The notes below the pieces were generated by a model. That model was not told the origin of the DNA. It worked only from the letters and a program-made list of their open reading frames with translations, and searched no databases. 64,000 bases of DNA, taken from the NCBI RefSeq assembly GCF_024298765.1, contig NZ_CP101210.1. The stretch is one strand, 5' to 3'. The first letter of the stretch is position 1, and each line of letters begins with the position of its first letter. The DNA comes from Escherichia coli. Its GTDB lineage: Bacteria; Pseudomonadota; Gammaproteobacteria; Enterobacterales; Enterobacteriaceae. The position numbers were made by a program, and so were the translations under genes. Positions 789 to 22,612 of the stretch are shown here, in pieces.

Positions 789-796
789 CGCCGAAC

Positions 797-2431: not shown

Positions 2432-2449
2432 TGTTAGCGTTTATATCCT

Positions 2450-2483
2450 GTTTTAAATACAAAAGCCCCGCTGTCGGGGCTTG
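2450..2483 (-). terminator. Hairpin plus T-run between hsdR stop and hsdM start
   Basis: GCCCCG-CTGT-CGGGGC stem-loop (2465-2480) followed on the minus strand by a U-rich tract; lies in the 63-bp hsdR-hsdM gap. Confidence 0.35.
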
Positions 2484-2494
2484 TCATGTGCGTA

Positions 2495-5400
2495 TTATAC
2501 CGTCGCTGCGTCGGTCACAACACCCAGCTCTTCGACTATCTTTTGCAGGCGGGCGATCTGCTCTATATCCGGGAACACACCGGTAACGCCTTCGTTGTGG
2601 ATATGCGTAAAAGGCTGTTCAAAGAGCTGCCGCATTTCAATGGTGCCGTAATCGCGAATGTGGTTTTTCAGCAATGACAGGAAGCGCAGTTGTTGGCTGG
2701 TCAGACTGTTATCAGCGGCGAACTGAGCAAAGCGCACTTCCACCGCGTCGCTGTCCATCCCGATGATGGTACGCAAAAGTTTATCCAGGCTGGCAGTTGC
2801 CTGCGGATAGAACTCTTTCAGTGCCCGGATATCAACGTTGGGGTTCTGGATCAGCACCAGCTTCGCCAGCTCATCCAGCTCGTTTTGCGTGACTGGCTCA
2901 CCGTTGCGGATTTTCTTCAGCACCGGATTTTGCTGGAACAGCGGCTCCAACGCTCCCTGAACCTGCTGGCGATAGAGTTTGAAATCAATCGAGCGGATAT
3001 TAGTTTTGCGGGTCTCTGTCTGGATCAGGTTCGCATCTTCGGTAATATCTACCTGTATCGAACCAAATTTTGGCGTCGCGTCTTTTTCCATCAGGTGCAT
3101 GATGCCGCGCAGATGAATGCGGATATCTTCCAGCTCTTCCAGGCTGGCCTGCTTCCACCAGCCTAAATCACGAAGCTGATTGATCCGCGGTCCTTGCTGT
3201 TGGACCTGCGCCAAATGCGGCGGCAGGCGCTCCACTTTTTCGACGATGACCGGCCAGAGCACATCCAGCTCTTCCGGGTTGGTATAACGGGCAGTTTGCG
3301 CCGCCAGAATATCCATATCAAAGCGCATAGCGTCGCTTTGCCCGCGCACGTCCAGCCACTGCATCAGCGGGGCCAGGACAGATAGCAAATCCTGCTGTGT
3401 TTTCGGGGAAAGCTGGCGCAGCACTTTTTCATCGCTGTACTGCGCTTTTTGATGCCACTTTTCCTGGACGGCAATCGACTTTTCATCCAGTGCATTGATT
3501 TGCTCGCGTAGCTGGTGAGCAACTAAATCCACCGCCTGTTTGTCGAATTTACGTTGCGCAGCGGCCCCCAGCATAACCCACGCTTCGAAGCGTTTTTGTG
3601 CAAGCGATTTTGTCGCTGTGACTTCGGCCTCTTCGGTATGCAGTTCGTGATACTCAAAATTGCCCCAGTGATCGAAAATGCGGAATTTCTGTTTATCCAG
3701 AGGTTTGCCGTTATCGTCGTAACCGTACAACCCCGGACAGAGGCGCGTACCACGGCCAATCATCTGCCAGAACTTCACTTTTGATTTGACCGGTTTGGCA
3801 AAGACCAGATTCACAATTTCCGGGACATCAATACCGGTATCGAGCATGTCAACGGAGATAGCGATGGTCAGCTCTTTGTTGGTGCTTTCATCCAGCCCTT
3901 TAAAATCATCAATCAGTTGCTCGGCGCGGGGATCGTAATTGTCGATGACCTGGCAGAAGCGCCCGGCAAACTGCGGGTACATATCGTCGAATAATTCATT
4001 CAACAGCAGCGCGTGTTTGTGGTTACGGGCGAAAATGATGGTTTTACCTGGCAACTGGCCGTCCCGATCTTTCAGGCCATTTTCCATCAGGTTACGCAGG
4101 ATATAGCGGTTGGTGTCTTTGTTGTAGATCGCCTCATCCAGCGCCTTGCCATCAAACTCCAGCGTATTGGGATCTATGCCTTGTTCTTCCAGCTCGCGGA
4201 TTTGTGCGTCGCTTAATTTCTCCCGTTTGATGCCTTCGCGCAGGAATTCTGTGGTGTGCGTGACAACCTCATAGGGAACCAGATTGTTATCGGCGATGGC
4301 ATCTTCCAGGCTGTAGTTGGCGGTAGGAATACGTCCTTCACAACCAAACAGGCCGAAAGTGGTTTTACTCACCATGTCAATCGGCGTGGCCGTCAGGCCA
4401 ATCTGGAGGGCATCAAAATACTTAAACAGATCGCCGTAAACGTTGTAGATAGAGCGATGGGATTCATCGGCGATGATCAAATCGAAATAACCAACATCGA
4501 AATGGTCCATGATTTTCATCATACCAGGATAGGTGGCGATGTAGATCCTAGCATTCTGCCTGTCTGCTTTTTTCGATTTCCCGACCACATACAGCGGCTC
4601 ATTGGTGAATTGATTAAAGGCATTCGCCGCCTGTTTACGTAGTTCCTTGCGGTCGCAAAGAAACAGGACGCGTTTTACCCAGCGGGCATCAATCATCAGT
4701 TTGCTTAGCGCTATTGCCACGCGGGTTTTGCCTGTACCCGTAGCCTGAACAATTAGCGATTGCCGGTATTTGTTGGTAAACCGCTCGCTGACACGGGCAA
4801 TGGTTTCAAGCTGGTACAAACGTCCGGCAACGGCCTTACCTTCGTTATCTTTTACGTGCGGCACACTGTTCAGCGGAAGACGGGTTTCACGCTGTTGAAT
4901 AAGATATTGCAGGCTTTCCTTGCTGTAGAAGCCAAACACCCGACGCGGGGGATAACCATGAGTTTTATGGTCATCCCACAGCCAGATATCATAGCCGTTG
5001 GTGTAGAAGATGATCGGACGCTGGCCGTATTCTTTTTCCAGCCAGTCTGCATACAGCCGGGCCTGAATTCGTCCTTGCTCGGCATTGACGCTGGTTTTTT
5101 TTGCTTCCACCACCGCCAGCGGTTTGTGTGCCTCATCCCACAAGACATAGTCCGCATAACCGTCTCCGGTCGCGGTAGGTTGTTCTTTAACGGGATGTTC
5201 CTGCGTAACCTGATCGGTATTTTTAAGGCCTTCGCCTACATTCCAGTCAGCAGCAAGCAGGCGAGAGTCAATCAGGCGACGGCGGGTTTCCGCTTCATCA
5301 ATAGAGAGAATATCGGCAACATGCTGGTTACGCGCTCTGGCTTCATTCAGGCGTTGAGTGAGGTGTTCGGCCTTTTCCTGTTCTTGCTGTAGTGCGCGTT

Positions 5401-5911
5401 GCAGCGCCAGTTCGCGCTCACGGCTTTCATCCTGAGCCCTGATTGCATCTTCCAGACGTTTTTCATCTGCACGACCTGAAGATTGTGTTAATGGAGGGAG
5501 TGTAAATTTGGGGCAGTCATCAACATTACCGTGGGCGTAGCGAACATACAGCCAAATTCCCAACAAATACGCTTCTTTGAGCAGCCAGTAAGTATCTTTA
5601 GCTTTGATACGTCCGCCGTGCGCGGCACGGTTGCCATGGATACGCAGCGCATCCATTTTCATGATGATGGCTTCCGGCATCATGCTGGTAAAGACATCAG
5701 CATTCATTAAATCGTAAAGATTAGCCTTAATACCTTCCGGCAACCGCTCCTGACGATACAACCAGCGCACCATCAATTCGGTGTAGTTGCGCAGCTTGAC
5801 CAGACAGCTTTCCGGATCGGAGTGAACATAGCGTTCCGCCATACACGCGAGTTCAGCCAGTTCCGGCCACTGGCTGCGCAACATTTCAAAATTGAGAGAC
5901 TGCTCCATCAA
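2495..5911 (-). CDS. hsdR: Type I restriction enzyme endonuclease/helicase subunit HsdR
   Basis: 1138-aa ORF; N-terminus MMEQSLNFEML resembles EcoKI-type HsdR; PD-(D/E)xK-like segment (DYVLWDE...VVEAKK), Walker A QATGTGKT and DESH helicase motifs. First codon in track is TTG; ATG is the second codon (5908). Confidence 0.9.
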   Translation of the reverse strand: MMEQSLNFEMLRSQWPELAELACMAERYVHSDPESCLVKLRNYTELMVRWLYRQERLPEGIKANLYDLMNADVFTSMMPEAIIMKMDALRIHGNRAAHGGRIKAKDTYWLLKEAYLLGIWLYVRYAHGNVDDCPKFTLPPLTQSSGRADEKRLEDAIRAQDESRERELALQRALQQEQEKAEHLTQRLNEARARNQHVADILSIDEAETRRRLIDSRLLAADWNVGEGLKNTDQVTQEHPVKEQPTATGDGYADYVLWDEAHKPLAVVEAKKTSVNAEQGRIQARLYADWLEKEYGQRPIIFYTNGYDIWLWDDHKTHGYPPRRVFGFYSKESLQYLIQQRETRLPLNSVPHVKDNEGKAVAGRLYQLETIARVSERFTNKYRQSLIVQATGTGKTRVAIALSKLMIDARWVKRVLFLCDRKELRKQAANAFNQFTNEPLYVVGKSKKADRQNARIYIATYPGMMKIMDHFDVGYFDLIIADESHRSIYNVYGDLFKYFDALQIGLTATPIDMVSKTTFGLFGCEGRIPTANYSLEDAIADNNLVPYEVVTHTTEFLREGIKREKLSDAQIRELEEQGIDPNTLEFDGKALDEAIYNKDTNRYILRNLMENGLKDRDGQLPGKTIIFARNHKHALLLNELFDDMYPQFAGRFCQVIDNYDPRAEQLIDDFKGLDESTNKELTIAISVDMLDTGIDVPEIVNLVFAKPVKSKVKFWQMIGRGTRLCPGLYGYDDNGKPLDKQKFRIFDHWGNFEYHELHTEEAEVTATKSLAQKRFEAWVMLGAAAQRKFDKQAVDLVAHQLREQINALDEKSIAVQEKWHQKAQYSDEKVLRQLSPKTQQDLLSVLAPLMQWLDVRGQSDAMRFDMDILAAQTARYTNPEELDVLWPVIVEKVERLPPHLAQVQQQGPRINQLRDLGWWKQASLEELEDIRIHLRGIMHLMEKDATPKFGSIQVDITEDANLIQTETRKTNIRSIDFKLYRQQVQGALEPLFQQNPVLKKIRNGEPVTQNELDELAKLVLIQNPNVDIRALKEFYPQATASLDKLLRTIIGMDSDAVEVRFAQFAADNSLTSQQLRFLSLLKNHIRDYGTIEMRQLFEQPFTHIHNEGVTGVFPDIEQIARLQKIVEELGVVTDAATV

Positions 5912-6004: not shown

Positions 6005-6337
6005 TTAATTCTCATATTTAAAGTCGATGTTTATTTTGAGTGTTTCAATATTCACAGTGACTTCGCAACCATGCCAGAATGGCTTTTCTTGTGATTTAAA
6101 GTTATCCACAAACAAATTTCTTAGTTCCACCAAAAGATCTAAAAGTCTTTCACTGGCATCTGCGGTTTCAGTGATCCAATGTTGATTGCCCTGTTTATCT
6201 ACATAGTCATAAGTAAACTCACCACAGTCGCTTTCCGGTTCTAACTTTGCACACAGAATGATTTTGACTGCATCACTAGGAGTGATCGATAGCAACACCG
6301 AACCAATGTCATTATAAATATCCTGATCAGAACGCAT
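6005..6337 (-). CDS. Putative CdiI-type immunity protein for the adjacent CdiA-CT nuclease
   Basis: 110-aa ORF whose ATG (6337-6335) overlaps the TAA stop of the toxin ORF (TAATG coupling); small acidic protein, AT-rich; position typical of cdiI. Confidence 0.55.
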   Translation of the reverse strand: MRSDQDIYNDIGSVLLSITPSDAVKIILCAKLEPESDCGEFTYDYVDKQGNQHWITETADASERLLDLLVELRNLFVDNFKSQEKPFWHGCEVTVNIETLKINIDFKYEN

Positions 6338-9300
6338 TATTTACCTCCGGGTGCATTGTTAAATACTTTTTCAATCGGGCGACCTCCATCTATCGAATAT
6401 ACTACTTTAAATTTAGCAGGTCTGACACTATCCCCAATATACGATGGCTGAATGTTGACCTTAACCTCTTTTCCTTCACCCAATGCTTTTGCCCAAGTAT
6501 TTTCCATCTGCTTCCAGGCTCCTTTGTTCAGATTTCCATCCATTGGAACAAGGTTCAATTTTTCACCAGGACCATTAAAAATACTGGCTATTAAATGACC
6601 ACCCTCATCTCCATCAAGGCCACACTTACCTGCTTTACATTGTTGATAGCCATTTCTATCCTTTACATTAGGACTAAGAGTTGCTTCAACCTGGCTTGGC
6701 CTTGCCTGAGCATCAGTTTTATAAATTTTATCACCATCTACATGATAAACTTTATTCGGCTGTGGGTTATTTAGCTCTTTGCTCCAGTTCCCTTTACCAC
6801 CTGAGTCTAGCATCAGCTTTTCAAGTGACTCCGCACTGATTTTCTGACCTGTCTGTTTTTCAACAGCCATTAGAGCCTTCAACTCTGACAACTCGCTGGC
6901 AGACATTTTACCAACCGCCGCTACTGTCAGGCCCGCTGGAAGAGCATCGCCAGCGACCATTTCCGCAACCCAGATACTAACTTCATTTGCACACAGCACA
7001 GTATTCGCACCACAGGCACTGACTGCTGCCTGGGCGGCTGCAATTGCTTCCGGAGTCAGAGCAATCACTACCCCACCTGTAGCCCCCCCAACAAGCGCTG
7101 CTGCAATCGCTTTGTTTACAGCCTCACCGCGTTTACATTCAGCCCCGCCAGGGTTAGTCGAGCAGGACGCAATATCTTTGCCATGCTCCTGCACGAACTT
7201 GGTCTGAGTGTCTTCATTACCACCCAGCAGGTTATTCTCAACAACATTCTTCCCAGCAGCAGCTCCGGTAGCCACACCCGCAGTATTCCCACCTGCAACA
7301 CCACCCGCCATACCTGCTGAGATACTCGCCAGCGTACTTAGCGTCTGCTTCTGGTCCTCGGTCAGCTTCGACAGGTCTTTCTCATCCGGATATAAAACCT
7401 TCGCGATTGCACCTGCGATAAGTTCACCGCTCACCGCACCGACTGAACCTGCTGCGGCATTATTTCCCTGAAGAGCCGCAGTCACACCGCCGAGAATGGC
7501 ATGAGCAATGGCTTTCGCTGCATCGTTATCATTAATTCCAGCATTGTGCCCTATGAAGTTTGCCAGTTCCGGTGCAGAAGCTCCGGCCAGAGCACCCGCT
7601 AAATTCCCCCCAGCCAGTCCCTGAAGCGCGGCTGTCGCGGCCTGGATACCCCGCTGCATATCGCTACCGGTACCATACTTTTCCTGTTCCTTTTTGTATT
7701 CCGGCGTATCACGCAGTTTTGCCAGATATGCCTGCCGCTGTTCTTCCGTCGTATCCGCCGGAACAGGCCCATATTTATCCTGCGCAGCCTTCAACGCATT
7801 CAGTTCACCCTGCGTCCGCGCGATATCCGCCACCTGACTGCCTATGTCACTGATAAGCCCCACTGTCTGCAGACGCCTCTGCTCTTTCTCCTTGTCAAAT
7901 ATCGGGCTGATACTGTCGTTGGCGTGTTCCGGGTCACGGCTCAGGTTCGCCAGATTCTGCTTCTGATTGTCCCTGTCCCGGATGGTGATAGTGCCTTCTG
8001 CCACTGCGGCCTGAGTCGTTCCTTCCGCATGTCCGCTGTGACCTCCGGCGGATATCATGCCACCCGGCATGTTACCCTGAAATTTATCCCCGAAGCTGCC
8101 ACCACCGCTCAGACTGATTCCACTGTGACTGACTTTATAATCCGCTTCGTTGTGAAGGTCACTGAACCCCAGCGTTCCGGTATCCAGGTGGTTTTTATCC
8201 GGTGTGGCAGTGGAGGCAATCACCGCACCATCCAGTTGGGTATGTTTACCCACTGTGATGTCGAAGCCGCCGTCACCGGCAAACATTCCGGTTTGTTCAG
8301 CAACGGAGTCAAAGCGGCTCTTCATCTTATCCCGGGAGGCAGCGATGTAACCTGAGCCGGTCATGGAGCCAAAGGTAAAACTGCCGCCGGCAGCCACGCT
8401 GGTCTGTTTACTGTCGTACTTACTGGTGTCCTGCTGGCTGCTTATCAGCAGGTCGTGGCCCACATCGGCGATAATCCTGTTGCCGTTGACCTGAGCACCG
8501 TTCAGTACCGTATCCCGACCACTGTTGATGGTGACGGTTTTACCGCTGTCTATTGTGGTTTCAGTCCACTCAGTACCGTTACCTTTCTCGCTGCCTTTTG
8601 CCGCATTAACGCTGGCAAAGACACTGATACCGGCACCGTTACCACCGGCACCGATACTGACACCCACGCCACCGCCACTGCTGCTGTTCCTGCCCGTTGT
8701 TTTTTGTGTGTTTGCCGCGCCACTCAACAGAACATCATTCGCAGCATCCAGGTTTGTGTTACCACCGGCCTTAAGCTGGCTTCCGGCAATCACAATATCT
8801 CCGCGGTTATCGCCCCTGTTTTTACCGGTTGCGACAACAGACAGATTATTCCCGGCATTCAGCGTACTGCCGGATACTGTGTCACTTTCAGAATGTTGTT
8901 GTGATTTCGATTTCTGGGTGGTGAGCGACAGGCTGACTCCCATCGCATTCGGGTCACCGGTTGCGGAGGCCATTGCCGCAGCCTGTCCGGCCTGCACACC
9001 AGACAGCGCTGTCTTTGTAGCCTGCAGGGTTTTCAGACGGCTGTCACTGCTCTCCTTCGTCTCCTGTGCACTGGTGACCGCATTATTGATGGCACTGCCC
9101 ACTGTGCCGGAAAGGGCAACCGTCAGCCCGCTTTTCTTCTGCTCAAATTTTTCGTCCACAGTACGACGGTCATGCCCCGGGTCAACCACCACACTGTCAC
9201 CGGTAATGCTGATATCCCGGTTCGCAATCACATCCGAACCGCTGATATGAGCCTGTTTGCCCGCGGTAATACTGACATTACCGGCAGTGGAGCCGATGGT

Positions 9301-9801
9301 ACTGGCACTCTGACTCTGCGTTGTCCCGGCCTCGCGGCGGTCGTGCGTTGTCTTACTGCTGCCAATGGTGAAGCCAATACCGCCGGTACCCATCAGACCG
9401 GATTTCTTCGTTTCCTTAAAGCGCCAGGACGTATCTGTACTGGTGGCAGCAAGAACATCAACATGGTTACCCGCCGCCAGTGACACATCCCGGTCAGCCA
9501 CCACATCCGAACCCTCTACCGTCAGGTTATCACCGGCGTTAACGGTCACGCGGTTCCCCGACAGCAGGGAGCCTGCTTCACGGGAGGCACTGTTCTCACT
9601 GATGGTGTGGGTGGTTTTCTTACTGAGAAAACCTCCGCTTTTTTTCTTCGTTTCCAGATAGTGATAGTCACTTTCTGTCGCCGTGGTCAGGGCGACATCA
9701 CGACCGGCATTCACACTGATATTGCCGGTTGCGGTAACGGATGACGCAACAGCGGTGATACGCATACTGAAGAGCATTCCGTATAAAGATTCAGCTGGCA
9801 A
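6337..9801 (-). CDS. cdiA: 5'-truncated CdiA (contact-dependent inhibition toxin) fragment: FHA-repeat region, pretoxin-VENN, C-terminal nuclease toxin domain
   Basis: Gly/Ser/Thr-rich filamentous-haemagglutinin-type repeats; [16 protein letters not shown]...AGKNVVENN pretoxin-VENN motif (VENN codons at 7231-7242); 297-aa CT with GHLIAS...[14 protein letters not shown] resembling the Serratia nuclease / Endonuclease_NS active-site region. No signal peptide or TPS domain; frame opens at a stop with TTG as first codon, no cdiB nearby. Confidence 0.8.
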
Positions 9802-10032
9802 AACTTTATCAGTCCATAAAAATCAACGGAAGCGCAGATGGTTCACACGTCCATTACCAACTGATTGTTGTCACAACCGGTAACACAAAGTACTGAACGA
9901 CTGTTTTTAACAGCGGTGTTGCGTCATCCACCACCGTGAAACAACGCTGTGCAGGGAATCGTCCGCATCCCCATAACGGTCAAACATCGTGGCGTTGACA
10001 GAATGACCGACGAAAAGCCAGAAAGCGCTGAT

Positions 10033-10581
10033 TCACTGAGCTGTAATCAATGTACAGCGCTGTACCGGACGATGGGTAATGGCGGTCACAACCGGTAACC
10101 CCAGAGACAATGCGACTGTTTTTAACGCAACATACTGACCGGATGTATCACCCCGGGCAACCCGAAAACACCTTTCCACCCGGCATTGTCCGCCAGCACT
10201 TATCACCTGCCAGCTATGTTGCAGTAAATCCACCACTTGCGAACATTGTTCATCAACTGTGACACAGGCTCGCGGGTGACAAATACTCGTCTGGCTGAGC
10301 AGCAACAGGCATCGAATTGTTGCTCCTCCATGTTGTTCCCGCAACCAGCGTAATACCACCGACGATGATGGACTGGCAGTGTGATTGCTCTCAGTAATAC
10401 GTTCATGCAGTTGTCGATAAAAGGAAGTACAGAATGCATGAATCTGTTGCCCGTTGATATTTCCTTCTGCCGAATGGAGTGTGAAGTAAAATGCCAGCAA
10501 ATGCGGCCAGTGGTCCACCGCCTGCTGAACAAAACGCCGGATGTCTCCCGGCTCTGAAATTAAGGCTTCGGTTATTTGCAC
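10033..10581 (-). CDS. Hypothetical protein (possible remnant at the cdiA truncation junction)
   Basis: 182-aa ORF with overlapping alternative frame; no recognisable motifs; low coding confidence. Confidence 0.2.
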   Translation of the reverse strand: MQITEALISEPGDIRRFVQQAVDHWPHLLAFYFTLHSAEGNINGQQIHAFCTSFYRQLHERITESNHTASPSSSVVLRWLREQHGGATIRCLLLLSQTSICHPRACVTVDEQCSQVVDLLQHSWQVISAGGQCRVERCFRVARGDTSGQYVALKTVALSLGLPVVTAITHRPVQRCTLITAQ

Positions 10582-11026
10582 GAAATGTTCCTTTTCAAAC
10601 CCTGTTGGATTTTGTCAAGACGGTACAGACACAGTAAAGCGCGCATCAACACCTGAAAGGTACGATACAAACACAAGTTACAAACAATAAGAACGGAAGG
10701 ACAATTAATCAGTGAGGAATAATAACTAAATTAACCAAAAGAATGTTACTGACAATACCACCAATACTTAAATAGCAATATATTAATTAATGTAAGAACA
10801 GATGCCCGGTAAGACATATACACAATACATCCACAAACACACTCTTTTCATTAAATAAATCACCTGATTAAACCATGAAAGTGTGATGTAAGTCAAAATT
10901 ACTGACACAATCAATTGATAATGATTATCTCTATCATTATCGTGAAATTCGAGAATGAAAGGAGAAGTAGTCATTATAAGTCTTTTATAAATCGTCATCA
11001 TCATAGTAAAGTAGAACACTTTTTAT

Positions 11027-11485
11027 ATGAGTTACTATATGAAAATATACTGGACAAGAAAAAACATTCCTGAACTTTCAGCACTTCCACCTTCATTAAG
11101 AAAGAAAAATTTTACTGACGCATATAATGCTGCATCTTCCCATATCGAATACTGGATAGGTGCTGGCGTCTCATTTATCTCGATGATGATTTTATTCAAA
11201 GTATATGACTTTCTTTTACCCGCCCAAGATACTTTCCCGGGTGATATCATAAGAAGTTTATGTGTTGTGTGTCCATCCATATTAATCTGGTTTCAGTTTT
11301 CGGTATATGTCATGAGGAAATATTACAGACATATTCTGGAACGAGGTAAGGAAACCGAAACCATTTCAGAAAGGTTGATACGTGAGGCTGATACACGAGA
11401 ATATGAATTATGGCGTCCGGCCCATCGCTTTTTCTCCATTATTCTATTAGTTTGCATTCATTCACTGATAACAACTATAAAATAA
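11027..11485 (+). CDS. Hypothetical small membrane protein (microcin-locus accessory)
   Basis: 152-aa ORF with ATG start, two or more hydrophobic segments; AT-rich, adjacent to the CPBP gene and microcin genes. Confidence 0.4.
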   Translation: MSYYMKIYWTRKNIPELSALPPSLRKKNFTDAYNAASSHIEYWIGAGVSFISMMILFKVYDFLLPAQDTFPGDIIRSLCVVCPSILIWFQFSVYVMRKYYRHILERGKETETISERLIREADTREYELWRPAHRFFSIILLVCIHSLITTIK

Positions 11486-11584: not shown

Positions 11585-12271
11585 ATGGAAATAACAAAAA
11601 ATAAAAATGCAACTATAAAAAAACAGTCATCAGCCGGCTGCTTTTCAATGTTTACTTTATCATTTTCCATTACCTTTATTCCTGCATTTCTTACAAACAG
11701 GCAGGAACTTATATCCAGGGGGCTTCTTGTTCCAGCATTATTTCTTGCTGAATTTCTAATTCTTGTTCCACTGTATTTTATTTTCTTCCGAAAAAGAGAA
11801 GGATTAGGAAGAGGTTCTTTTCGACTGGATGTTTTTTTTACTCTTTTCTCTTTAATAATGATTATTCAGTTATTTGTCCCTTATCTGCTGGCAGTGAGGA
11901 AAACGGAAGAATGGATGATCTCGCAAATGTCTTTTTCCGGGGCCATTTTATGGATTAATATATTTTCTTCCGTACTTCTTGTTCCTGTATATGAAGAGAT
12001 TGTATTTCGAGGGTGTCTTTTTAACTCTTTTAAATTCTGGTTTAATGACAATATTTACATCTCTGCTATTGTAACATCAGTCATATTTTCTGCATTACAT
12101 CTACAATATACTGACTTTCGTACATTTTTGATGCTCTTTCTGATATCGTTAGTTCTTATCAGTGCAAAAATAAAGTCGAATGGCCTGTTAATGCCCATAT
12201 TACTTCACATGGCGATGAATGCAGTCATAACAGGAATACAATATACGTTACAATATCACATAACAGTCTGA
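11585..12271 (+). CDS. CPBP-family (CAAX protease / Abi) intramembrane metalloprotease-like protein, putative bacteriocin self-immunity
   Basis: 228-aa polytopic membrane protein with family motifs EEIVFRG, FSALHL and LLHMAMN; ATG preceded by AAGGGAA Shine-Dalgarno. Confidence 0.75.
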   Translation: MEITKNKNATIKKQSSAGCFSMFTLSFSITFIPAFLTNRQELISRGLLVPALFLAEFLILVPLYFIFFRKREGLGRGSFRLDVFFTLFSLIMIIQLFVPYLLAVRKTEEWMISQMSFSGAILWINIFSSVLLVPVYEEIVFRGCLFNSFKFWFNDNIYISAIVTSVIFSALHLQYTDFRTFLMLFLISLVLISAKIKSNGLLMPILLHMAMNAVITGIQYTLQYHITV

Positions 12272-12695
12272 AATTGTTATTATGAGATATCTATAACACC
12301 TGAAGTTGGAAAAAGAAGCAAATAATTCCTTATAAGGAATCGTTTACTAATATATTTAGATGATCTCATATTTGTTTATGATATACATCTGATTAAGATA
12401 TAATGGATTATAAATTACTCAAAGGTGAACAAATATCTTCGCCTTTTCTCGTAGAAAGAGACTTGAAACTTATAATACATCTATATAAACGTGATTTAAA
12501 TCACGATTTGCAGTAAAAGCAATTGGTATAATTCATTGGTATTACTATTATTTCATCTATTGCACGAACTATTTTACAACAATAAAAAAGATATACAAAC
12601 AGCAAGAAGTAAAAATATTCGGATAAATAAAAATTTTTGCTACCTTGGTTTCTATAGTCTTTATTTCTAAGTTTTTCATAAGCACTCAAAGACTC

Positions 12696-12881
12696 ATGTA
12701 TAGGGACGGTTTAATAATGAAACTATTTTTTTATTTCTCGTTGTTCTTTATAATACAACTTATAAATTCAGACTTAGACACATTAACCCTTTATCTTTTC
12801 ATAAAGAAAATAATTCTTTCGTTACTTGCGAGTGTACTGTTTTTATTTGTTTTATCTTTCTTTAATAAAAAGAGGAAATAA
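12696..12881 (+). CDS. Putative microcin immunity protein (small hydrophobic membrane peptide)
   Basis: Hydrophobic ORF ending 1 nt before the microcin-like ATG; the track starts it at a TTG (12645); in-frame ATGs at 12696 and 12717; resembles MchI/McmI-class immunity peptides in size and position. Confidence 0.5.
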   Translation: MYRDGLIMKLFFYFSLFFIIQLINSDLDTLTLYLFIKKIILSLLASVLFLFVLSFFNKKRK

Positions 12882-12882
12882 C

Positions 12883-13206
12883 ATGAGAAATATAACAACC
12901 GATGAACTTGCTTTAATACATGGTGCAGGATTAGATAAAGATGCATCCGTTGCAATAGGTACTGCGGCTGGTGGTTTTTTAGGTAAAGCAACAAAAATCC
13001 CTGGTGCGGATATAGCAGGAAGTGCAATTGGAGGATATATTGGAGGAGTTATTGCTGATGGTTCAAATAGGACAATAACAATACCATCAAACGGTATTAA
13101 CTATAATCCGGGTATAGGACTTGGAAGTTTTAATCCAAACTACAATGGAGGTTTATTAAACTCAGGATTTAACTCATCAACATCCTCTTCTAGTAGTGGA
13201 AGTTGA
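12883..13206 (+). CDS. Class IIb (siderophore-type) microcin-like precursor, not assignable to a named microcin
   Basis: 107-aa ORF; leader MRNITTDELALIHGA|G of double-glycine type; Gly/Ala/Ile-rich core; C-terminal Ser-rich tail SSTSSSSSGS as in salmochelin-modified microcins; AAGAGG Shine-Dalgarno overlaps the upstream stop; convergent on mchF. Confidence 0.7.
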   Translation: MRNITTDELALIHGAGLDKDASVAIGTAAGGFLGKATKIPGADIAGSAIGGYIGGVIADGSNRTITIPSNGINYNPGIGLGSFNPNYNGGLLNSGFNSSTSSSSSGS

Positions 13207-13215
13207 TTAATTTCT

Positions 13216-13253
13216 AAAGCAGCATAGCTTATTATGCAGCAATGCTGCTTTTA
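13216..13253 (+). terminator. Rho-independent terminator after the microcin-like gene
   Basis: AAGCAGCAT...ATGCTGCTT inverted repeat followed by TTTT, 10 bp after the stop. Confidence 0.45.
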
Positions 13254-13266
13254 GTGATATATTATC

Positions 13267-15369
13267 CTAATTTGTAATTCTAAAAATCCGATCAACTGTT
13301 CTTAAAGTTGTCTCTCTATGTGCAATAATCACCCGGGTGATATTCATCTTTTTTATAGCAGCATTCACGAAACGTTCACTTTCTGTATCAAGAGAACTTG
13401 TAGCCTCATCCATAAATAATATTCCAGGTTTCCGGTATAAAGCTCGGGCAATGAATATACGCTGTTTTTGACCGCCGGAAAGACCTTCCCCCAGTTCACC
13501 TATTAACGTTTCATACCCCATTGGCATTTTCATTATCACATCATGAATATGACTTGCTCTGGCACATTCTGTCATCCATTCGTCGTCTGTTTCTTCTGCA
13601 AACCCACAGATATTTTCACGAATTGATCCTGAAAATAGCCGGTCGTCCTGCATAACACAGGCTATCATACGGTGATAATTATTTATTCCAAGTTGACGTA
13701 TATCCGTGCCATTAACCAGTACTTTTCCACTATCTGGTTCAAACAGTCCACATAATACTTTCATTAATGTGGTTTTTCCGGCACCGGAGGCACCAGTTAT
13801 AGCCACACTTTCTCCCGGAGCCACAGACAAATTCAGACCACTGAATACCTGTGCTGACTGGCTGTCATACCGGTAGCTTAAATCAGTGGTTTCCAGTGAA
13901 ACCGGGCTCATGTCAGCAACGATTTCAATTTCCGGTTTCTTTTCTTCCTTTTCATGTAGTGCAATATCTGCAATGCGCTCATTATGCAGACTCATTATTC
14001 TCAGTTGAAGAAGAAAACTGGTCAGCGAAGCAACCCGATCCGAAAACTGCCCACGAAAAGAACCAAATGCCACAAACATCCCTATTGTCATCTGATTATC
14101 GATCACAAGGCTTGCACCCAGCCATAAAATCGCCACCTGATCACAGGCGGCAACAAAAGTATTTATCCCCCCGAAGAGCAAATCCATCCTGGTTAACTTA
14201 ATACCTGAATTGATCGCATCTATTTTCAGGTTAAGCCAGTGTGTTCCCCGAATCCCAGCCATACCCTGGATTTTTACCGTGGCAATACCATACAGGCTTT
14301 CCATAAAATAGGAGCTGGCCCGGGCCCCCCTGACAAGAGTTTCTTCCGATATTTGCCGGTAATAGCCGTATGTCACCAGACGAATAAGAACGTAAACCAT
14401 GGTAAAACCGAGCACTATCCAGGTAAGATATCCTCCATATAACAGCATCATCACAAAAACACCCACAACCATAATACTGTCCATGATTGCCCCAACAACA
14501 CAGGTGGTAAAGGTGGCCCTCAAAGTGTCAAGGGAGCCAAAACGCGACTGGATATCACCTAATTTACGGCGTTCAAAAAACGCCAGCGGCAGTCTGAGAA
14601 GATGGTTAAACAGACCCGACTGCCACTGTATATTGATGAGCGTGCTCATAACCAGTGAGGACCATGCACGCAGCATACTCACCGCGGCCCTGAGCAATAT
14701 AAAGAACATCAGGCCAGCAGAAATAAGCGTCAGCAGCCCTCTGTCCCCCGCCGGAATCGCATGATCCATAACCAGCTGAGTTCCCACCGGCATTACCAGA
14801 TTGATTGCTTCAATTACAACTGACAGACAGAAAATTTTCGCCAGTGTTCTTTTAATACCGTAAATACTGTTAATCAGTGAACGGAGACTTATGCGGGTCT
14901 GCTGGGTTTCCGCCAGGAATTCACTTCCGGGCCAGACCTCAAGTGCAATGCCCGTAAAATACCGGCTCATTTCCTCCCGACCGAGATATCTTCTGCCTCT
15001 GGCCGGATCATGCAGTACATAACGGTTACGCTTTACGCTGACCAGCACGACGAAGTGACTGAAATCCCAGTGGAGAATACACGGCATTTTGAGGGCACCA
15101 AGTTCATCCAGCTCCAGTGAAAGAGCCCGGGTGACCATCCCCAGCTGCTCCGCTATTCCATTGATTCCTGCAAGGTTTGCTCCACGGGCCGAGAGATTAA
15201 ACTTCCGGCGAAGAGATATCAGGTCAATATTCTTACCAAAATGACCGCATATCATTGCCAGGCAGGCCAGTCCACATTCAGCGGTCTCCGTCTGATGAAT
15301 AACCGGAACACGACGTCGCCAGCGCATATCAAGCTGATTTATAATTTGTCTGAAATTCCCGTTAGTCAT
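13267..15369 (-). CDS. mchF: Microcin ABC exporter with N-terminal C39 peptidase domain (CvaB/MchF family)
   Basis: C39 peptidase motif [15 protein letters not shown], six TM segments, Walker [13 protein letters not shown] signature LSGGQKQR. Track start 15387 is GTG; ATG at 15369 gives [10 protein letters not shown]. Confidence 0.9.
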
Positions 15370-16636
15370 TGAGCGGTCCTGTTGCACTGTGTTTCATGTC
15401 ATAGAAAGGAGAAAGCATCCACTGGTAAATACGCCTTTTTTCCAGAAATAGTGTACTTTCGGCTTTCATTCCATTTTCCAGAGGGAGGTATTTTTCGTCA
15501 TATCTGATAATCTGCTTTTCAGGCATCGCAATGACTTTATACCAGGGAACAGAGTCGCCCGGCGTATTCTGTGGTGCTCCCTTATAGGTCAACATTTCCT
15601 GTGTTGACGCAGGAGTCCTGGATATAGTTTTAACCGTAGCAGAGAACTGCCCAAATTTTTCTGCCGGAAAGGCTTCATAACGAATATTCACTTTGTCACC
15701 AGCCGAAATATAAGGAACAGCATCATTCGGGACCCAGAGAATAAGATAATAGTTTTCAATGTTCTCAGGAATAACCTGCAGAAGGCTGTCTCCGGTATTG
15801 ACCATTTGCCCGACAGTGACACTCAAGGAGTCAACTTTCCCGTCAGTCAACGCCCGGATAATGATTTCGCCCTCCACATCAGTGTTAACCAGTTCTTTCT
15901 GTAACTCATACCGTTGCAGTTCCATCTGGTAGATACGGTTATCAAAATCTGCAGCCTGAGTCTGAATCTGACTCTCCAGAGTGGTTATCTGCAGGGCATT
16001 CTGTTCGTTCTGTCCGCTCAGGCTGAGAAGATTGTTTTGTTGCTGATAATATAATGCCACCTGGTTAGTTAACTGATCTTTATTAATCAGCCCTTTTGCC
16101 TGATAGTTTCTGTAATTCTCCATATTGTTTTTCATTATTTTTATCCCTTCCTCTGCACGCTGTATAATATCTGATGAGCGACGAAACGCATCTGTGTATT
16201 GCAGGCGTTGTTTTTCCAGGGTATCTAGCGTTATTTTTTTACTTTCTTCCAGACGGGAAATAATGTTGTCCACACGAACCAACTGGTTTTCTATATCCCG
16301 ACGATGATTATCAGTGACAATACCACTACGTGTACTTTTACTGATGTCAATCAGATAAACAGGATCCCCTTTTTTTATCAACTGTCCTTCATGAACAAAC
16401 TGCCTGACAACAAATCCCTGTACACCTGAATATATATTGACAGCTCTTGGCCAGGTTGTGACCTCACCACTGACATTAACACGGCGGCTATAGGTACCAA
16501 CAATAATGAACATCAGAAATGCCGTAATAAACACTATGCTTCCCAGCATGATTAACCATAGTGGTATTCCGGGAAGTAATATTGCCCGTCCCTGCCACTT
16601 CATTTTTCTGTTTTCTAAAGCATCCTGACGAAACAA
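15362..16636 (-). CDS. mchE: Microcin secretion membrane-fusion protein (CvaA/MchE, HlyD family)
   Basis: 424-aa [30 protein letters not shown]..., single N-terminal TM plus coiled-coil; overlaps mchF start by 8 bp; first codon is TTG. Confidence 0.9.
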
Positions 16637-16788: not shown

Positions 16789-17241
16789 CTACGTTTTATG
16801 CAGCCGCTCAGGGATGTATGTCACAATTTTCTTTCGCCTGCTTAACCATCGTACTTCTCCTTCTCCCCATGGCTGAAGCTGTATGAGATAGTCAATAACT
16901 TTTCGACCAAAGCCTGGTTTACAACAGAAATCCAGAATCCAAATCCTTCCATCTTCATTCCATTCAGACGGATGCAACCTGAATTCTGGATCCCTGAGCA
17001 GGCGCGCTTCTGTATCAGCCTCAAGATATGCCCAGGTAATATACGCCAGTGGAAAACCTCGTGAATCAAACAGGAATTTAATCTGATTATGCTGTATCGC
17101 ATATTCAGTCCAGTATTGAATGGTTAACACCGGATACAGACTGTAATTACGATTGTAGAGCATACAACTGACCGCAAAACCGATCTGTTCATAAACAGTC
17201 CATTCATCTTTTCCTCTGATGTTTTCCCTTATATAAGACAT
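16789..17241 (-). CDS. mchD: Microcin maturation protein MchD (MceI-like, HlyC-type acyltransferase family)
   Basis: 150-aa ORF with ATG start directly downstream of mchC; HlyC/toxin-activating acyltransferase-like sequence. Confidence 0.75.
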   Translation of the reverse strand: MSYIRENIRGKDEWTVYEQIGFAVSCMLYNRNYSLYPVLTIQYWTEYAIQHNQIKFLFDSRGFPLAYITWAYLEADTEARLLRDPEFRLHPSEWNEDGRIWILDFCCKPGFGRKVIDYLIQLQPWGEGEVRWLSRRKKIVTYIPERLHKT

Positions 17242-17266: not shown

Positions 17267-18817
17267 TTACACTGTGTTTCTTATCGGTTCAAGATATCCA
17301 AATGCATCTCTGGAAAACTTAAGCATAAAATTTTTCATATCAGAAATTGCTTCTTGTAAAAAAAGGGGATCATCGCCATGATTATCCAGCAGGATGGCAA
17401 TTTTTTCGCACATATTCTCTTTCCTCAGCTCTTCCCTGGGTTGCAGCCTTTTCATGGTATGATGTTCAATTTCTTTCAGGAGTAATGAGGCATTTATCTG
17501 ACGTCTGGTACTGCCTTGCGTCAGCCAGTGGATGGCCTGGGAAAAACACTGTTGTGCAACGGTGAAATAAACATCATTCTTGATGCTACTATTCAGTGCC
17601 TGCTTTTGATTATGCCTATGATGGATTAGCGTCACAACCAACTTTTGCAATGGTGAACCATCCTGATTGACAATATCTTGGGCATGTGATTTCTCGCAGT
17701 ATTGATTGAGTAATGCAACAAAACTGTTAACCAGTTCTTTCAATATATCAGGTATCTCTTTTTGTGTTATAAATTCTCCAGGAATACCCAACAGTTCTAG
17801 ATAACAGTAATAACATGCTTCATGAAAAGTTTTCTGAAATATCTCCTCAACCTTCAAACGGGCTGCAAGAGTGAAGTCAGGGTCAAACATATATTTTCCG
17901 ATATACAAGCAGAGATCAGACAGCCCTTGCATAAGTACCATCGGTTCTTTTGCCAGTTCAGCTAATCTTAGTTTATACCCAAAATCAGCTGGGGAATCTC
18001 CCGGAAACAGACAACTGAGTCCGCTAAAATCCATTAATCTGCCATCCATTGCAATATTAGAAGGAGAAGTTGTCAATCTCAGGAAACGTGTTCGACAAAA
18101 TGCCATTTGCCAGGCCTCACGACGTGCCAGTTCACATAACCCCTCAATGCAATAAATCCGGGGATCAGTTCGTGCTTCAGCATCAATTTCTTCCGGTGGT
18201 ACAGGTAGATATCCTGGCAGCTTGTGGATCACAGATCTAACCCGACAGGCATCGTGAATTAACAGACTGGAATACTCCGGTTTTACTTGGAAGTAAGGTG
18301 CCCGTTCAAAATGCGCCGGACGAACAACAGGCTCACGTACCAACAGGGCTCTTCGTGATTTCCTACCGGAGCGCTCAAATGCCTTTTCAGTATAGAGATC
18401 TGTAAGTAAAACCGCCCGAACCCGCACAGCACTATAAGGTAATATTTGAGCCAGTACTTCTCCCCACAAAGCCTCATATATTGCATGAACAGCGCCGAGT
18501 GCACCATTAGAATGACGTTCGTCAGTACCTTCGCCAACCAACGGATTACTTCCTATTCCTTTAACCTGGTAGTTACCATCAAACCCACAACGTGCACCAC
18601 CTCCATTACGCTGAATACCACTGCCACCATAGCGCTCTGCATGGAACACTTTGGCAGAAGCTGTACTGCCAGGATCGATAATATAACTGCAGGCATTTTG
18701 CAGCTCGTCTGGATTTCTGACATCCTCTGCACACCAGATTAATGAGGCCTTGATCTGCCTGGCAGTGAAAGGCACCAGGTTTTCATTCAGTTCAGAAAGT
18801 GAACACTGATGACTCAT
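17267..18817 (-). CDS. mchC: Microcin maturation protein MchC (MceJ-like)
   Basis: 516-aa ORF with ATG start, immediately downstream of mchB in the mchIBCDEF order. Confidence 0.8.
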   Translation of the reverse strand: MSHQCSLSELNENLVPFTARQIKASLIWCAEDVRNPDELQNACSYIIDPGSTASAKVFHAERYGGSGIQRNGGGARCGFDGNYQVKGIGSNPLVGEGTDERHSNGALGAVHAIYEALWGEVLAQILPYSAVRVRAVLLTDLYTEKAFERSGRKSRRALLVREPVVRPAHFERAPYFQVKPEYSSLLIHDACRVRSVIHKLPGYLPVPPEEIDAEARTDPRIYCIEGLCELARREAWQMAFCRTRFLRLTTSPSNIAMDGRLMDFSGLSCLFPGDSPADFGYKLRLAELAKEPMVLMQGLSDLCLYIGKYMFDPDFTLAARLKVEEIFQKTFHEACYYCYLELLGIPGEFITQKEIPDILKELVNSFVALLNQYCEKSHAQDIVNQDGSPLQKLVVTLIHHRHNQKQALNSSIKNDVYFTVAQQCFSQAIHWLTQGSTRRQINASLLLKEIEHHTMKRLQPREELRKENMCEKIAILLDNHGDDPLFLQEAISDMKNFMLKFSRDAFGYLEPIRNTV

Positions 18818-19088: not shown

Positions 19089-19316
19089 TTAGCTACCGCC
19101 ACCAGCAGAAGAACTGGCACTACCACTTCCCACGGTCGAGCCAATTGCTGTTGTCAAACCGGCAGATACGGCTCCAACTACAACCCCAAGTGGACCACCA
19201 GGTATTCCGGCGAGAGCTCCAACAATAGCTGCAGCACCTGCAGCATTAGCTGAAGTCGCTGGCGCACCTCCCGCCCCGGAAATATATCTTAACTGTGATT
19301 CTGTTATTTCTGGCAT
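19089..19316 (-). CDS. mchB: Microcin H47 precursor
   Basis: 75-aa ORF MPEITESQLRYISGAGGAPATSANAAGAAAIVGALAGIPGG...GSGSASSSAGGGS: double-glycine leader, Ala/Gly-rich core and Ser-rich tail matching MccH47 as I recall it (recalled residue 2 is R, here P). Confidence 0.9.
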   Translation of the reverse strand: MPEITESQLRYISGAGGAPATSANAAGAAAIVGALAGIPGGPLGVVVGAVSAGLTTAIGSTVGSGSASSSAGGGS

Positions 19317-19343: not shown

Positions 19344-19553
19344 TTAACTTCCGTTTTTCCAGTCTGACCAGACCAGAATCCTTCGAATCCCATGAATCAG
19401 CTCAATAAAACCAAGAAATATTATAAAGCTTAGAAAAACGTCAACATAAGAATTCCCTTCGCCAACAATCCGAAGGGATGAAAGTGAAACCAATAAGATA
19501 GTAATAGGTAAACTGAATATAGCCGTCAATTGGGACAGTTTTTTATAACTCAT
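19344..19553 (-). CDS. mchI: Microcin H47 immunity protein
   Basis: 69-aa hydrophobic two-TM peptide immediately upstream of mchB; ATG start. Confidence 0.85.
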   Translation of the reverse strand: MSYKKLSQLTAIFSLPITILLVSLSSLRIVGEGNSYVDVFLSFIIFLGFIELIHGIRRILVWSDWKNGS

Positions 19554-19964: not shown

Positions 19965-20210
19965 ATGAATTGTGATAATAATCACAGAAATGAAGAATTC
20001 ATTGTTACCTTTGATAAAGGCAACAAGCAAGACAATTCAAGACGAAAACACGATAATTTTCCTATAGAGGTAGAATCCTCCGTAGAGCAGGAGACACACT
20101 GTATCACAAATAATAAGTCAGCTTCCGGTATAGTAACACATGACTATGATGCCGATTATATTTGTGGTTGTGGTGAAATTATGTGTCCTGGTTGCGGTCA
20201 TGACCTATAA
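19965..20210 (+). CDS. mchS4: Small Cys-rich protein, mchS4-like
   Basis: 81-aa ORF with strong GAGGAGG Shine-Dalgarno 8 nt upstream; C-terminal CGCGEIMCPGCGH cluster; position matches mchS4 in the H47 locus order as I recall it. Confidence 0.5.
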   Translation: MNCDNNHRNEEFIVTFDKGNKQDNSRRKHDNFPIEVESSVEQETHCITNNKSASGIVTHDYDADYICGCGEIMCPGCGHDL

Positions 20211-20365: not shown

Positions 20366-20800
20366 ATGTATCTTACGAAAAAGATTATAATAAGTATGAT
20401 GTTTATATTACCATCTGCTGCATTTTCATCAGATCCACCTCCCCTTCAACAATCGTTAGAAAAAACAACCTATTTTTCTATAGGTATGAATGGGTTTATA
20501 GGCTATCAGAGCGAAGGGGAAAAATTATACACACACATTCTTACATTAGATAATCCCGAAGAGATATTTAAAAATATAATAGAAAATAGAAAGTCAACTA
20601 AGGAGTCTAAAATTTATGCTGCTTGTGGGCTATATTATTTAAACGTAGAAAATATAGAGTCATTGTTTAATGAAAATGATAAACAAGAATATATGTCTGT
20701 CTTAAGAGGGGATATTTTAACAAAAATAAAACTGAATGATATTCTGAATTCTGTGATAATAAATGGTTGCAACACCAAATTAATATCTGAACATAAATGA
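20366..20800 (+). CDS. mchS3: Signal-peptide protein upstream of the I47-like microcin gene (candidate mchS3)
   Basis: 144-aa ORF with N-terminal signal peptide MYLTKKIIISMMFILPSAAFS; AAAGGGG Shine-Dalgarno; sits where an immunity gene would be expected. Confidence 0.5.
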   Translation: MYLTKKIIISMMFILPSAAFSSDPPPLQQSLEKTTYFSIGMNGFIGYQSEGEKLYTHILTLDNPEEIFKNIIENRKSTKESKIYAACGLYYLNVENIESLFNENDKQEYMSVLRGDILTKIKLNDILNSVIINGCNTKLISEHK

Positions 20801-20816: not shown

Positions 20817-21053
20817 ATGAGAGAAATATCAGATCACATGCTTGATTTCGTGAAAGGAGGGATGAATCTTAATGGATTACCTAGTTCTACTAATGTAATA
20901 GATCTACGAGGAAAAGATATGGGAACATATATTGATGCTAATGGAACATGCTGGGCTCCGGGTACTCCATCCATCATCATGTATCCGGGGGGAAGTGGAC
21001 CTTCTTATAGTATGAGTAGTTCCACATCCAGCGTAAACAGCGGCACATCATAA
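20817..21053 (+). CDS. mchS2: Microcin I47-like precursor
   Basis: 78-aa ORF MREISDHMLDFVKGG|MNLNGLPSSTNVIDLRGKDMGTYIDANGTCWAPGTPSIIMYPGGSGPSYSMSSSTSSVNSGTS: double-glycine leader, Ser-rich tail; closely resembles MccI47 as recalled; GCAGGAGG Shine-Dalgarno. Confidence 0.75.
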   Translation: MREISDHMLDFVKGGMNLNGLPSSTNVIDLRGKDMGTYIDANGTCWAPGTPSIIMYPGGSGPSYSMSSSTSSVNSGTS

Positions 21054-21337: not shown

Positions 21338-22612
21338 ATGATACCTATGAAAAACTATCTTTTCCAGACTCCCGAAGATATTTGTGTACAGTTAAAAAAA
21401 ATGACACATCCTGTCACAATAAGAACAACAGATATTGCTAATTTCTGGCACTATCTTGAGTCAGCAACACTTCCAGTGATCACAAAAAGCACCACTACAG
21501 AAAATCGGGAGGTTACATTTCTGTGGCGCTCAGAGAAAGCACTGCAAGGCGTATATCTTCGCCTGAATCGTGTTACAGATAAAAAAGACGTCAAAAAAGG
21601 ACTAATGACTCATATCCCTTCGACAGATATCTGGATGCTGACACTGGTGTTACCAGCTTCATATCGGGGCTCATACTCATTTATAGAAATTCCCACAGAT
21701 ATGACACAAAAAGACATATTTCAACTAGGAAGTCGCTTCTCTCCATTACCCGGTAAATCTGATCCATTTAACAAAACAGCAGAAATAAATATACGAGGAT
21801 TCGGAGAATCAGTCCTTTCTCTTGATATGGCTCCTGAACAAAAGGAATGGGATGATACTTCCCATAAATGTACAGGTATTCTTTCAATATTACATTCCTT
21901 TGTTGCAGGATATCAACGCCGGATTCGTTTATATTTCCCCCTGAATCCAACATCAGTACCTCTTGGATTACTTGTGTTACCTGATGCTGAAACATGGTTT
22001 GACCGGATAGATATTACCCGGGCATTAGATATGGCCATCACCACTGGTCGTATCACGCCAATGGCAATTATGGGGATAGACAATATTAATGAATCTGATC
22101 GTATGAATATACTGGGAGGCAATAAAGAACTCATCTTTGATATAGCGGAAAATCTGATACCCCAGTTATACAGAGACTATCCGGATATCGTATGGGCTGG
22201 TCGCTCTAATACTGTACTGGCCGGGCAGAGCCTCGGTGGAGTGACAGCACTGATGGCAGCTATATATGCGTCGACAACATTTGGTACAATCATTAGTCAC
22301 TCACCTTCAATGTGGTGGAACCCTGACCAGGGCAGCCCGATCTTGTTTACTGAGAATAATACCTCCTGGGTAAGTGAGCAGATACTTTCAGCGCCTCCGA
22401 AAGATGTAAATATCCGACTTGGAGTCGGTTCTTTAGAAGGTACAACCGTCTCACATGTTCAGCGATTGCATCATTCGTTAATCGCAGCTGGTTTGGAAAG
22501 TAACCTCACTGTCTATACCGGTGGTCACGATTATGCTTGGTGGCGCGGAGCAATTATTGATGAATTAGCAAATTATAATTGCAGGAAGGTATCAAATAAT
22601 AACTCTGTGTAA
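21338..22612 (+). CDS. mchS1: Enterobactin/salmochelin esterase homologue (IroD/Fes-like)
   Basis: 424-aa ORF with serine-hydrolase motif GQSLGG; position between mchS2 and mchA in the H47 locus. Confidence 0.8.
   Translation: MIPMKNYLFQTPEDICVQLKKMTHPVTIRTTDIANFWHYLESATLPVITKSTTTENREVTFLWRSEKALQGVYLRLNRVTDKKDVKKGLMTHIPSTDIWMLTLVLPASYRGSYSFIEIPTDMTQKDIFQLGSRFSPLPGKSDPFNKTAEINIRGFGESVLSLDMAPEQKEWDDTSHKCTGILSILHSFVAGYQRRIRLYFPLNPTSVPLGLLVLPDAETWFDRIDITRALDMAITTGRITPMAIMGIDNINESDRMNILGGNKELIFDIAENLIPQLYRDYPDIVWAGRSNTVLAGQSLGGVTALMAAIYASTTFGTIISHSPSMWWNPDQGSPILFTENNTSWVSEQILSAPPKDVNIRLGVGSLEGTTVSHVQRLHHSLIAAGLESNLTVYTGGHDYAWWRGAIIDELANYNCRKVSNNNSV

Follow-up and report, generated by a model that had tools for sequence, protein, structure and literature searches.

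We report that a 64,000-nucleotide stretch of Escherichia coli DNA (NCBI RefSeq assembly GCF_024298765.1, contig NZ_CP101210.1; the whole stretch is referred to as the window) carries, at 12717-13206, the gene pair of the published class IIb microcin Ec W: the immunity gene Ec WI followed by the precursor gene Ec WA. An intact H47-type microcin island surrounds the pair, which there takes the place of the microcin M cassette, and we give this reading a probability of about 0.93. As the direct reference we fetched the Ec W locus of strain NCTC10444 (NZ_LR134092) and compared it with the window base by base. Ec WA is identical to NCTC10444 positions 3367929-3368252 in all 324 nucleotides and in all 107 encoded amino acids, and one RefSeq protein, WP_001390454.1, is shared by NCTC10444, UPEC_U013 and ACN002. 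Since the match is complete at both levels and the protein accession is the same, the peptide encoded in the window is microcin Ec W. It was named as a class IIb microcin by Bhattarai, Bucci & Mortzfeld (Probiotics Antimicrob Proteins 2025, PMC12999681). An earlier note on this DNA had raised the possibility of an undescribed microcin and had set a comparison with named microcins beforehand as the check on that idea; the comparison returned a complete match to a microcin that is both named and tested, and the suggestion falls. A 2025 publication already covers the peptide with its immunity gene, position and activity, and the locus is not a new discovery. What the present analysis adds is an annotation gap, a difference between Ec WI alleles and a wider family around the Ec W core.

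The publication describes the NCTC10444 gene at 3367929-3368252 as encoding a 107-amino acid precursor with a 15-amino acid signal ending in GA, no cysteines and a serine-rich C-terminus, and places the immunity open reading frame (ORF) at 3367763-3367927, one nucleotide from Ec WA (PMC12999681). The site is between mchF and mcmM, with microcin M replaced, the orientation reversed and nucleotides unlike those of the usual cluster (PMC12999681). Expressed in an E. coli class IIb system under iron limitation, the only condition under which Ec W was assayed, Ec WA inhibits E. coli, Klebsiella pneumoniae and K. aerogenes, as well as S. Typhimurium, Shigella flexneri, Brenneria and Gibbsiella, some plant pathogens being among the bacteria inhibited, and growth during Ec WA expression depends on Ec WI (PMC12999681). 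Microcins made in this system are stated to be linked to monoglycosylated enterobactin (MGE). Activity and an immunity phenotype upon expression, which the earlier note had listed as further checks, have therefore already been demonstrated. Cole et al. 2022 (PMC9746304) had an identical sequence in their supplement too, where it counts as a putative "novel hit" to microcin V with 26.9% identity and an E value of 2.4e-5.

The window and the NCTC10444 Ec W locus have in common the 1-nt gap between the two genes, the position between mcmM and mchF, the inverted orientation and an H47/I47 cluster with glycosyltransferase and esterase genes. They differ by a handful of substitutions in adjacent genes, R2P in the MchB leader among them, in the number of clusters (one in the window, two in NCTC10444) and in the presence, upstream of the island in the window, of a type I restriction-modification system and an orphan cdiA-CT/cdiI module.

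Ec WA, read from the ORF list and the raw sequence, starts with ATG and occupies 12883-13206 on the plus strand; translation of 12883-13206 gives the full protein MRNITTDELALIHGAGLDKDASVAIGTAAGGFLGKATKIPGADIAGSAIGGYIGGVIADGSNRTITIPSNGINYNPGIGLGSFNPNYNGGLLNSGFNSSTSSSSSGS. The leader is encoded by 12883-12927 and the core by 12928-13203, of which 13174-13203 specify the tail SSTSSSSSGS, and the TGA stop is at 13204-13206. The 15-residue leader is of the double-glycine type and ends in Gly-Ala, the junction reading MRNITTDELALIHGA followed by GLDKD...SSTSSSSSGS. The 92-residue core has a mass of 8.77 kDa and contains 20 Gly, 14 Ser, 10 Ile and 9 Ala residues, and no Cys. The leader, the Gly/Ala/Ile-rich core and the Ser-rich tail are thus present as they had been described from the sequence. 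So are the features expected of class IIb precursors: a Ser-rich C-terminal tail ending in Ser, the absence of Cys, a core below 10 kDa and a leader of about 15 residues that aligns with those of MchB, MciA and McmA. A small hydrophobic ORF, Ec WI, ends 1 nt before the Ec WA start codon, with its TAA at 12879-12881 in a different frame, and the Shine-Dalgarno sequence of Ec WA (AGAGGA, 12871-12876, plus strand) lies within its 3' end. Leader, tail and gene layout together support a precursor of class IIb type that is translationally coupled to its immunity gene. Ec WA is the third such precursor in the window, as the earlier note had counted, beside mchB at 19089-19316 (minus strand) and the MccI47 precursor gene at 20817-21053 (plus strand).

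Ec WI is placed at 12717-12881 on the plus strand (165 nt, 54 amino acids) on the basis of the published coordinates, the AGGGA preceding its ATG and hydropathy, which outlines two hydrophobic segments at approximately residues 1-17 and 31-49. The 61-amino acid version proposed earlier, starting from ATG 12697, was dropped: that codon has no Shine-Dalgarno sequence, while ATG 12717 follows AGGGA and matches the publication, which makes 12717 the most likely start. Coordinate 12645, where the region of interest had been taken to begin, is no more than the TTG codon that opens the longest mechanical ORF. Within the 490-bp gene pair, the window differs from NCTC10444 by two single nucleotide polymorphisms, 12762 A/G and 12798 T/C, both in Ec WI; they correspond to V16I and L28F, leaving 52 of 54 residues identical. 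The window therefore encodes the I16/F28 allele, whereas the published and experimentally tested allele is V16/L28. We surveyed the 116 complete genomes carrying the region (see below) with a 71-bp probe that spans both positions: the window allele is found in 75 of them and other alleles in 41. Judged by these counts, complete genomes appear to carry the tested V16/L28 allele less often. The I16/F28 allele might differ in its protection spectrum.

Both ORFs are intact and preceded by good ribosome-binding sites. To gauge selection we computed the proportions of synonymous (pS) and non-synonymous (pN) differences between the E. coli genes and their copies on the Salmonella plasmid CP191517.1. 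Synonymous sites are saturated in both ORFs (pS 0.80-0.82), while pN is 0.25 for Ec WA and 0.37 for Ec WI. With synonymous sites saturated at these pN values, and with 116 genomes carrying the region at 99% identity or more, Ec WI and Ec WA are real genes rather than chance ORFs, and they form a two-gene module conserved at the protein level. The genome count comes from a megablast survey with 12600-13260 (661 bp) as the query against 5426 complete E. coli genomes: the 116 carriers make up about 2% of the set, and the region is always chromosomal. This is four times the 29 carrier genomes quoted in PMC12999681.

A set of 114-amino acid forms of the precursor (ending in ...SGSWLISKAA; our entries P0001 and P0006, and the Cole 2022 supplement) was considered as a true read-through allele and rejected as a probable artefact. 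They are the window sequence with the TGA decoded as Trp, occur on short contigs, and probably arise from gene calling with genetic code 4 on short AT-rich contigs. P0006, moreover, shows a systematic exchange of Thr, Ala, Ser and Pro for Ile, Val, Leu or Phe, the pattern that C-to-T (bisulfite-like) conversion of the assembly would leave.

Ec W is hardly visible in current annotation. Ec WA is labelled "hypothetical protein" in every carrier genome and Ec WI is unannotated in all RefSeq genomes examined. Neither protein is covered by a model in NCBIfam release 20, and a scan of Ec WA, Ec WI and their neighbours against NCBIfam matched only the CPBP protease, below cut-offs. Because of the uninformative label, the missing model and the missing immunity gene, surveys of bacteriocin content in genomes of extraintestinal and avian pathogenic E. 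coli will miss Ec W.

The pair sits in a cassette of about 1.04 kb, 12245-13281, whose edges were set by blastn against cluster 1 of NCTC10444, the one bearing MccM: homology ends at 12244 and resumes at 13282. Flanking homology to this MccM-bearing cluster is 95.6-97.6%, the cassette itself has no blastn match to it, and the DNA it replaces is 742 bp carrying mcmA together with mcmI. The gene is convergent to mchF and the breakpoints at 12244 and 13282 fall at the microcin M site, so the cassette replacement proposed from the layout is borne out. The cassette is AT-rich, with a GC content of 0.23 in Ec WI, 0.26 in the upstream spacer and 0.38 in Ec WA, compared with 0.46 in both mchF and the window as a whole.

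Occupying the position that mcmA holds in related clusters, and sharing leader and tail motifs with its product, Ec WA could in principle be a long allele of microcin M or of E492. To this we attach next to no probability. Across 12245-13281 the DNA nowhere resembles the mcmA cassette, and the gene is in the opposite orientation. In an alignment of the precursors Ec WA, MchB, MciA, McmA and the Salmonella homologue, only the Salmonella row exceeds 40% identity to Ec WA; the alignment contains many gaps, and invariant columns occur only in the leader, at two core glycines and in the tail. Searches of the whole library with the single sequence and with a profile returned no MccM or E492 relatives, nor any protein named from Gibbsiella. 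In the published phylogeny, Ec W groups with Gq W (PMC12999681). The idea of a long MccM or E492 allele is therefore refuted by the cassette blastn and the precursor alignment, and the statement in the earlier note that the peptide is none of H47, I47, M or E492 stands. Its core is unrelated to those of MchB, MciA and McmA. With microcins M, H47 and I47, Ec W nevertheless shares a double-glycine-type leader, a Ser-rich tail ending in GS, the maturation and export genes and an adjacent gene for a small membrane immunity peptide. Its core, at 92 amino acids the longest reported, is longer than theirs, and relative to McmA both the cassette DNA and the gene orientation differ.

According to PMC12999681, the closest characterised relative of Ec W by blastp and phylogeny is Gq W of Gibbsiella quercinecans, in the MccW clade. 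Gq W, too, is a class IIb microcin and was tested with that expression system (Mortzfeld et al. 2024, PMC11634061). Its host differs, being an oak pathogen, and the likeness to Ec W is as given in the text of PMC12999681.

Exhaustive and profile searches returned few relatives. A close one is encoded on a 299-kb plasmid of Salmonella enterica, CP191517.1, with 73% identity by BLASTP and 66% in a global alignment. At 9772-10330 of our plasmid locus L006, this record carries a 109-amino acid Ec WA homologue that ends in ...SGGASGPGGGS, with a 14-nt overlap between its start and an Ec WI-like ORF. The pair directly follows homologues of mchC/D/E/F, is co-directional with them and adjoins IS66 elements. 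We found no naming of this Salmonella homologue as a microcin in the literature searched. A tblastn search of Ec WA against PLSDB plasmids gave no match; CP191517.1 is a newer record and was reached via the protein collection. A Raoultella peptide has 62% identity to Ec WA and the tail ...SSASNGC, and another peptide, 74% identical, ends in ...PANAPFRNNR and is not Ser-rich. Further out, Serratia, Raoultella, Pantoea and Mixta encode double-glycine peptides of 90-100 amino acids with about 40-47% identity and no Ser-rich tail, whose common core motif is D[KR]DA..A.G...GG.LG.A.[KR]IP....GSA.GGY.GG..D...TITIP. Taken at face value, these sequences suggest that the Ec W core is a toxin scaffold existing both with and without a siderophore-acceptor tail. 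It is conceivable, at somewhat less than even odds, that the core is a portable toxin module of an uncharacterised double-glycine peptide family spread across Enterobacterales. If this is true, a single toxic scaffold has acquired or shed the tail, and all members of the family would act on one common cellular target.

Signals for expression were sought around the pair. Between the convergent Ec WA and mchF lies a hairpin with a T-run at 13214-13254 (minimum free energy -19.3 kcal/mol, z = -2.7), including a terminator-like site at 13236-13248 that is followed by TTTT; it is a probable bidirectional terminator. The only Fur-box-like site in the window, with two mismatches to GATAATGATAATCATTATC, is at 10917-10935; 0.04 matches are expected by chance. 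It lies between two divergent hypothetical ORFs, 10033-10581 (minus strand) and 11039-11485 (plus strand), and upstream of the plus-strand series formed by ORF 11039-11485, mcmM, Ec WI and Ec WA. From this arrangement we infer that the site may drive Ec W transcription.

Several points weigh against our assignment. The Ec WI of the window, with I16 and F28, differs from the allele whose protection was assayed. The 445-nt gap upstream of Ec WI holds no promoter signal above chance, and a scan of 12250-13350 gave 6 sites where 6.6 are expected from shuffled sequence. The activity of Ec W was demonstrated by plasmid (pBAD) overexpression, not from the native locus (PMC12999681). For Ec W, neither PMC12999681 nor the eLife study of related microcins reports mass spectrometric data, a purified peptide, receptor mutants or a target. 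Finally, since many relatives of the Ec W core lack the Ser-rich tail, the toxic core may not depend on a siderophore.

Two other accounts draw on these points. One is that the cassette is a silent passenger in this strain, an acquired AT-rich insert that is unexpressed in its native setting and has no role in competition. The result of the promoter scan, the reliance of all functional data on pBAD and the GC content of 0.23-0.38 beside a cluster at 0.46 would fit it. We nevertheless consider it improbable, as both ORFs are intact with good ribosome-binding sites, the region is kept at 99% identity or more in 116 genomes, purifying selection is seen against the Salmonella copies, a terminator-like hairpin lies downstream and the Fur-box-like site lies upstream on the same strand.

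The other account, to which we give a still smaller chance, is that Ec W works for the most part without modification, like a class IIa microcin: MchEF would export it, uptake would be independent of siderophores and the Ser-rich tail would be dispensable. Besides the tail-less relatives of the same core in Serratia, Pantoea and Mixta and the lack of mass spectrometric evidence for an adduct in the Ec W paper, it can point to a weak similarity to microcin V in the leader and the N-terminal part of the core, seen both by Cole et al. and by us. In our pairwise BLASTP against a manually entered CvaC sequence, the identity is 27% with an E value of 2e-6, and the likeness covers the leader and the first 20 or so core residues (MR..T..EL....G....D.A.AIGT..G.F). 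Microcin V, however, has a C-terminal disulfide and is encoded in the cvaABC-cvi plasmid operon, whereas Ec WA has no Cys, a Ser-rich tail and a place in a siderophore-microcin cluster. We rejected classification of Ec WA as a microcin V-like class IIa peptide on these grounds: no Cys, an H47-type context and a similarity that is weak and N-terminal. Against a dispensable tail, SSTSSSSSGS matches the acceptor tails of MchB, MciA and McmA in the alignment, and the gene is clustered with intact glycosyltransferase, esterase and mchCD genes. The closest homologues, in Salmonella and Raoultella, have Gly/Ser-rich tails, and the Salmonella gene adjoins mchCDEF homologues. Related new class IIb microcins showed activity only in iron-depleted media (eLife study), and Ec W was itself assayed under iron limitation alone.

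On the assignment to Ec W as a class IIb microcin, a pathway can be proposed by analogy. Ec WI and Ec WA would be co-transcribed and translationally coupled. A glycosylated enterobactin-derived moiety would then be joined to the C-terminal serine of the 107-amino acid precursor, as in MccE492, M and H47, presumably by the glycosyltransferase, the esterase and MchC/MchD. MchF would cut the 15-residue leader after Gly-Ala, and MchF, MchE and TolC would export the 92-residue core. Target cells would take up the peptide in a TonB-dependent manner via catecholate siderophore receptors. The target is probably in the inner membrane, where the small membrane peptide Ec WI would block the action of the toxin in the producer. 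The siderophore adduct and the uptake route of Ec W are both inferred from the better-studied class members.

The genes such a pathway calls for are all in the window. For the region annotation we carried over that of ACN002, as the first 24 kb of the window are identical to this strain. Every cluster gene is full length and free of internal stops, with 0-6 amino acid differences to the NCTC10444 cluster. Export is represented by mchF (13267-15369, minus strand; 700 amino acids), an intact C39-peptidase ABC exporter, and mchE (15362-16636, minus strand; 424 amino acids), an intact HlyD-family membrane fusion protein. Genes for the glycosyltransferase, the enterobactin esterase and MchC/MchD-type maturation proteins are linked to the pair. 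Intact and on the minus strand, mchD (16789-17241; 150 amino acids) encodes an HlyC-type acyltransferase-like maturation protein and mchC (17267-18817; 516 amino acids) a maturation protein annotated 'MchC protein'. The enterobactin-esterase-like alpha/beta hydrolase (mchS1/mcmK; 21338-22612, plus strand; 424 amino acids) and the glycosyltransferase (mchA/mcmL; 22754-23878, minus strand; 374 amino acids), both named after the Ec W paper, are likewise intact.

Between these blocks lie the H47 and I47 genes. The MccH47 precursor gene mchB (19089-19316) and its immunity gene mchI (19344-19553) are on the minus strand; in the mchB leader of the window residue 2 is Pro in place of Arg (MPEITES... 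versus MREITES...). On the plus strand, mchS3 (20366-20800) is directly followed by the 78-amino acid MccI47 precursor gene (20817-21053). The latter is unannotated in ACN002, UPEC_U013 and cluster 2 of NCTC10444, and its product departs from the 77-amino acid copy in NCTC10444 cluster 1 in the tail (...SSTSSVNSGTS) and at several core residues. An 81-amino acid ORF at 19965-20210 (plus strand), between mchX/mchI and mchS3, has a Cys-rich C-terminus (...YICGCGEIMCPGCGHDL) and is a hypothetical protein in UPEC_U013.

Upstream of the cassette, mcmM (11585-12271, plus strand; name per the Ec W paper) encodes a CPBP-family intramembrane protease that is identical to that of NCTC10444 in 225 of 228 residues. 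It is preceded by the two genes that flank the Fur-box-like site, both hypothetical in the ACN002 annotation. From the same annotation, 1-5908 (minus strand) holds type I restriction-modification genes (hsdS/M and a DEAD-box helicase subunit), and 6005-9759 (minus strand) an N-terminally truncated cdiA with cdiI, a YezG-family immunity gene. The latter segment is an orphan contact-dependent-inhibition toxin/immunity module adjoining the microcin island; other strains have the full cdiBA, with about 9 kb of extra DNA. A tRNA scan of the window for an island insertion site found none. In ACN002 an IS2 insertion that is absent from the window lies just past the glycosyltransferase gene (at about 23,900), and the remainder of the ACN002 island consists of CP4-type genes (CbtA/YeeU toxin-antitoxin, antirestriction and an integrase remnant) and abuts cadC.

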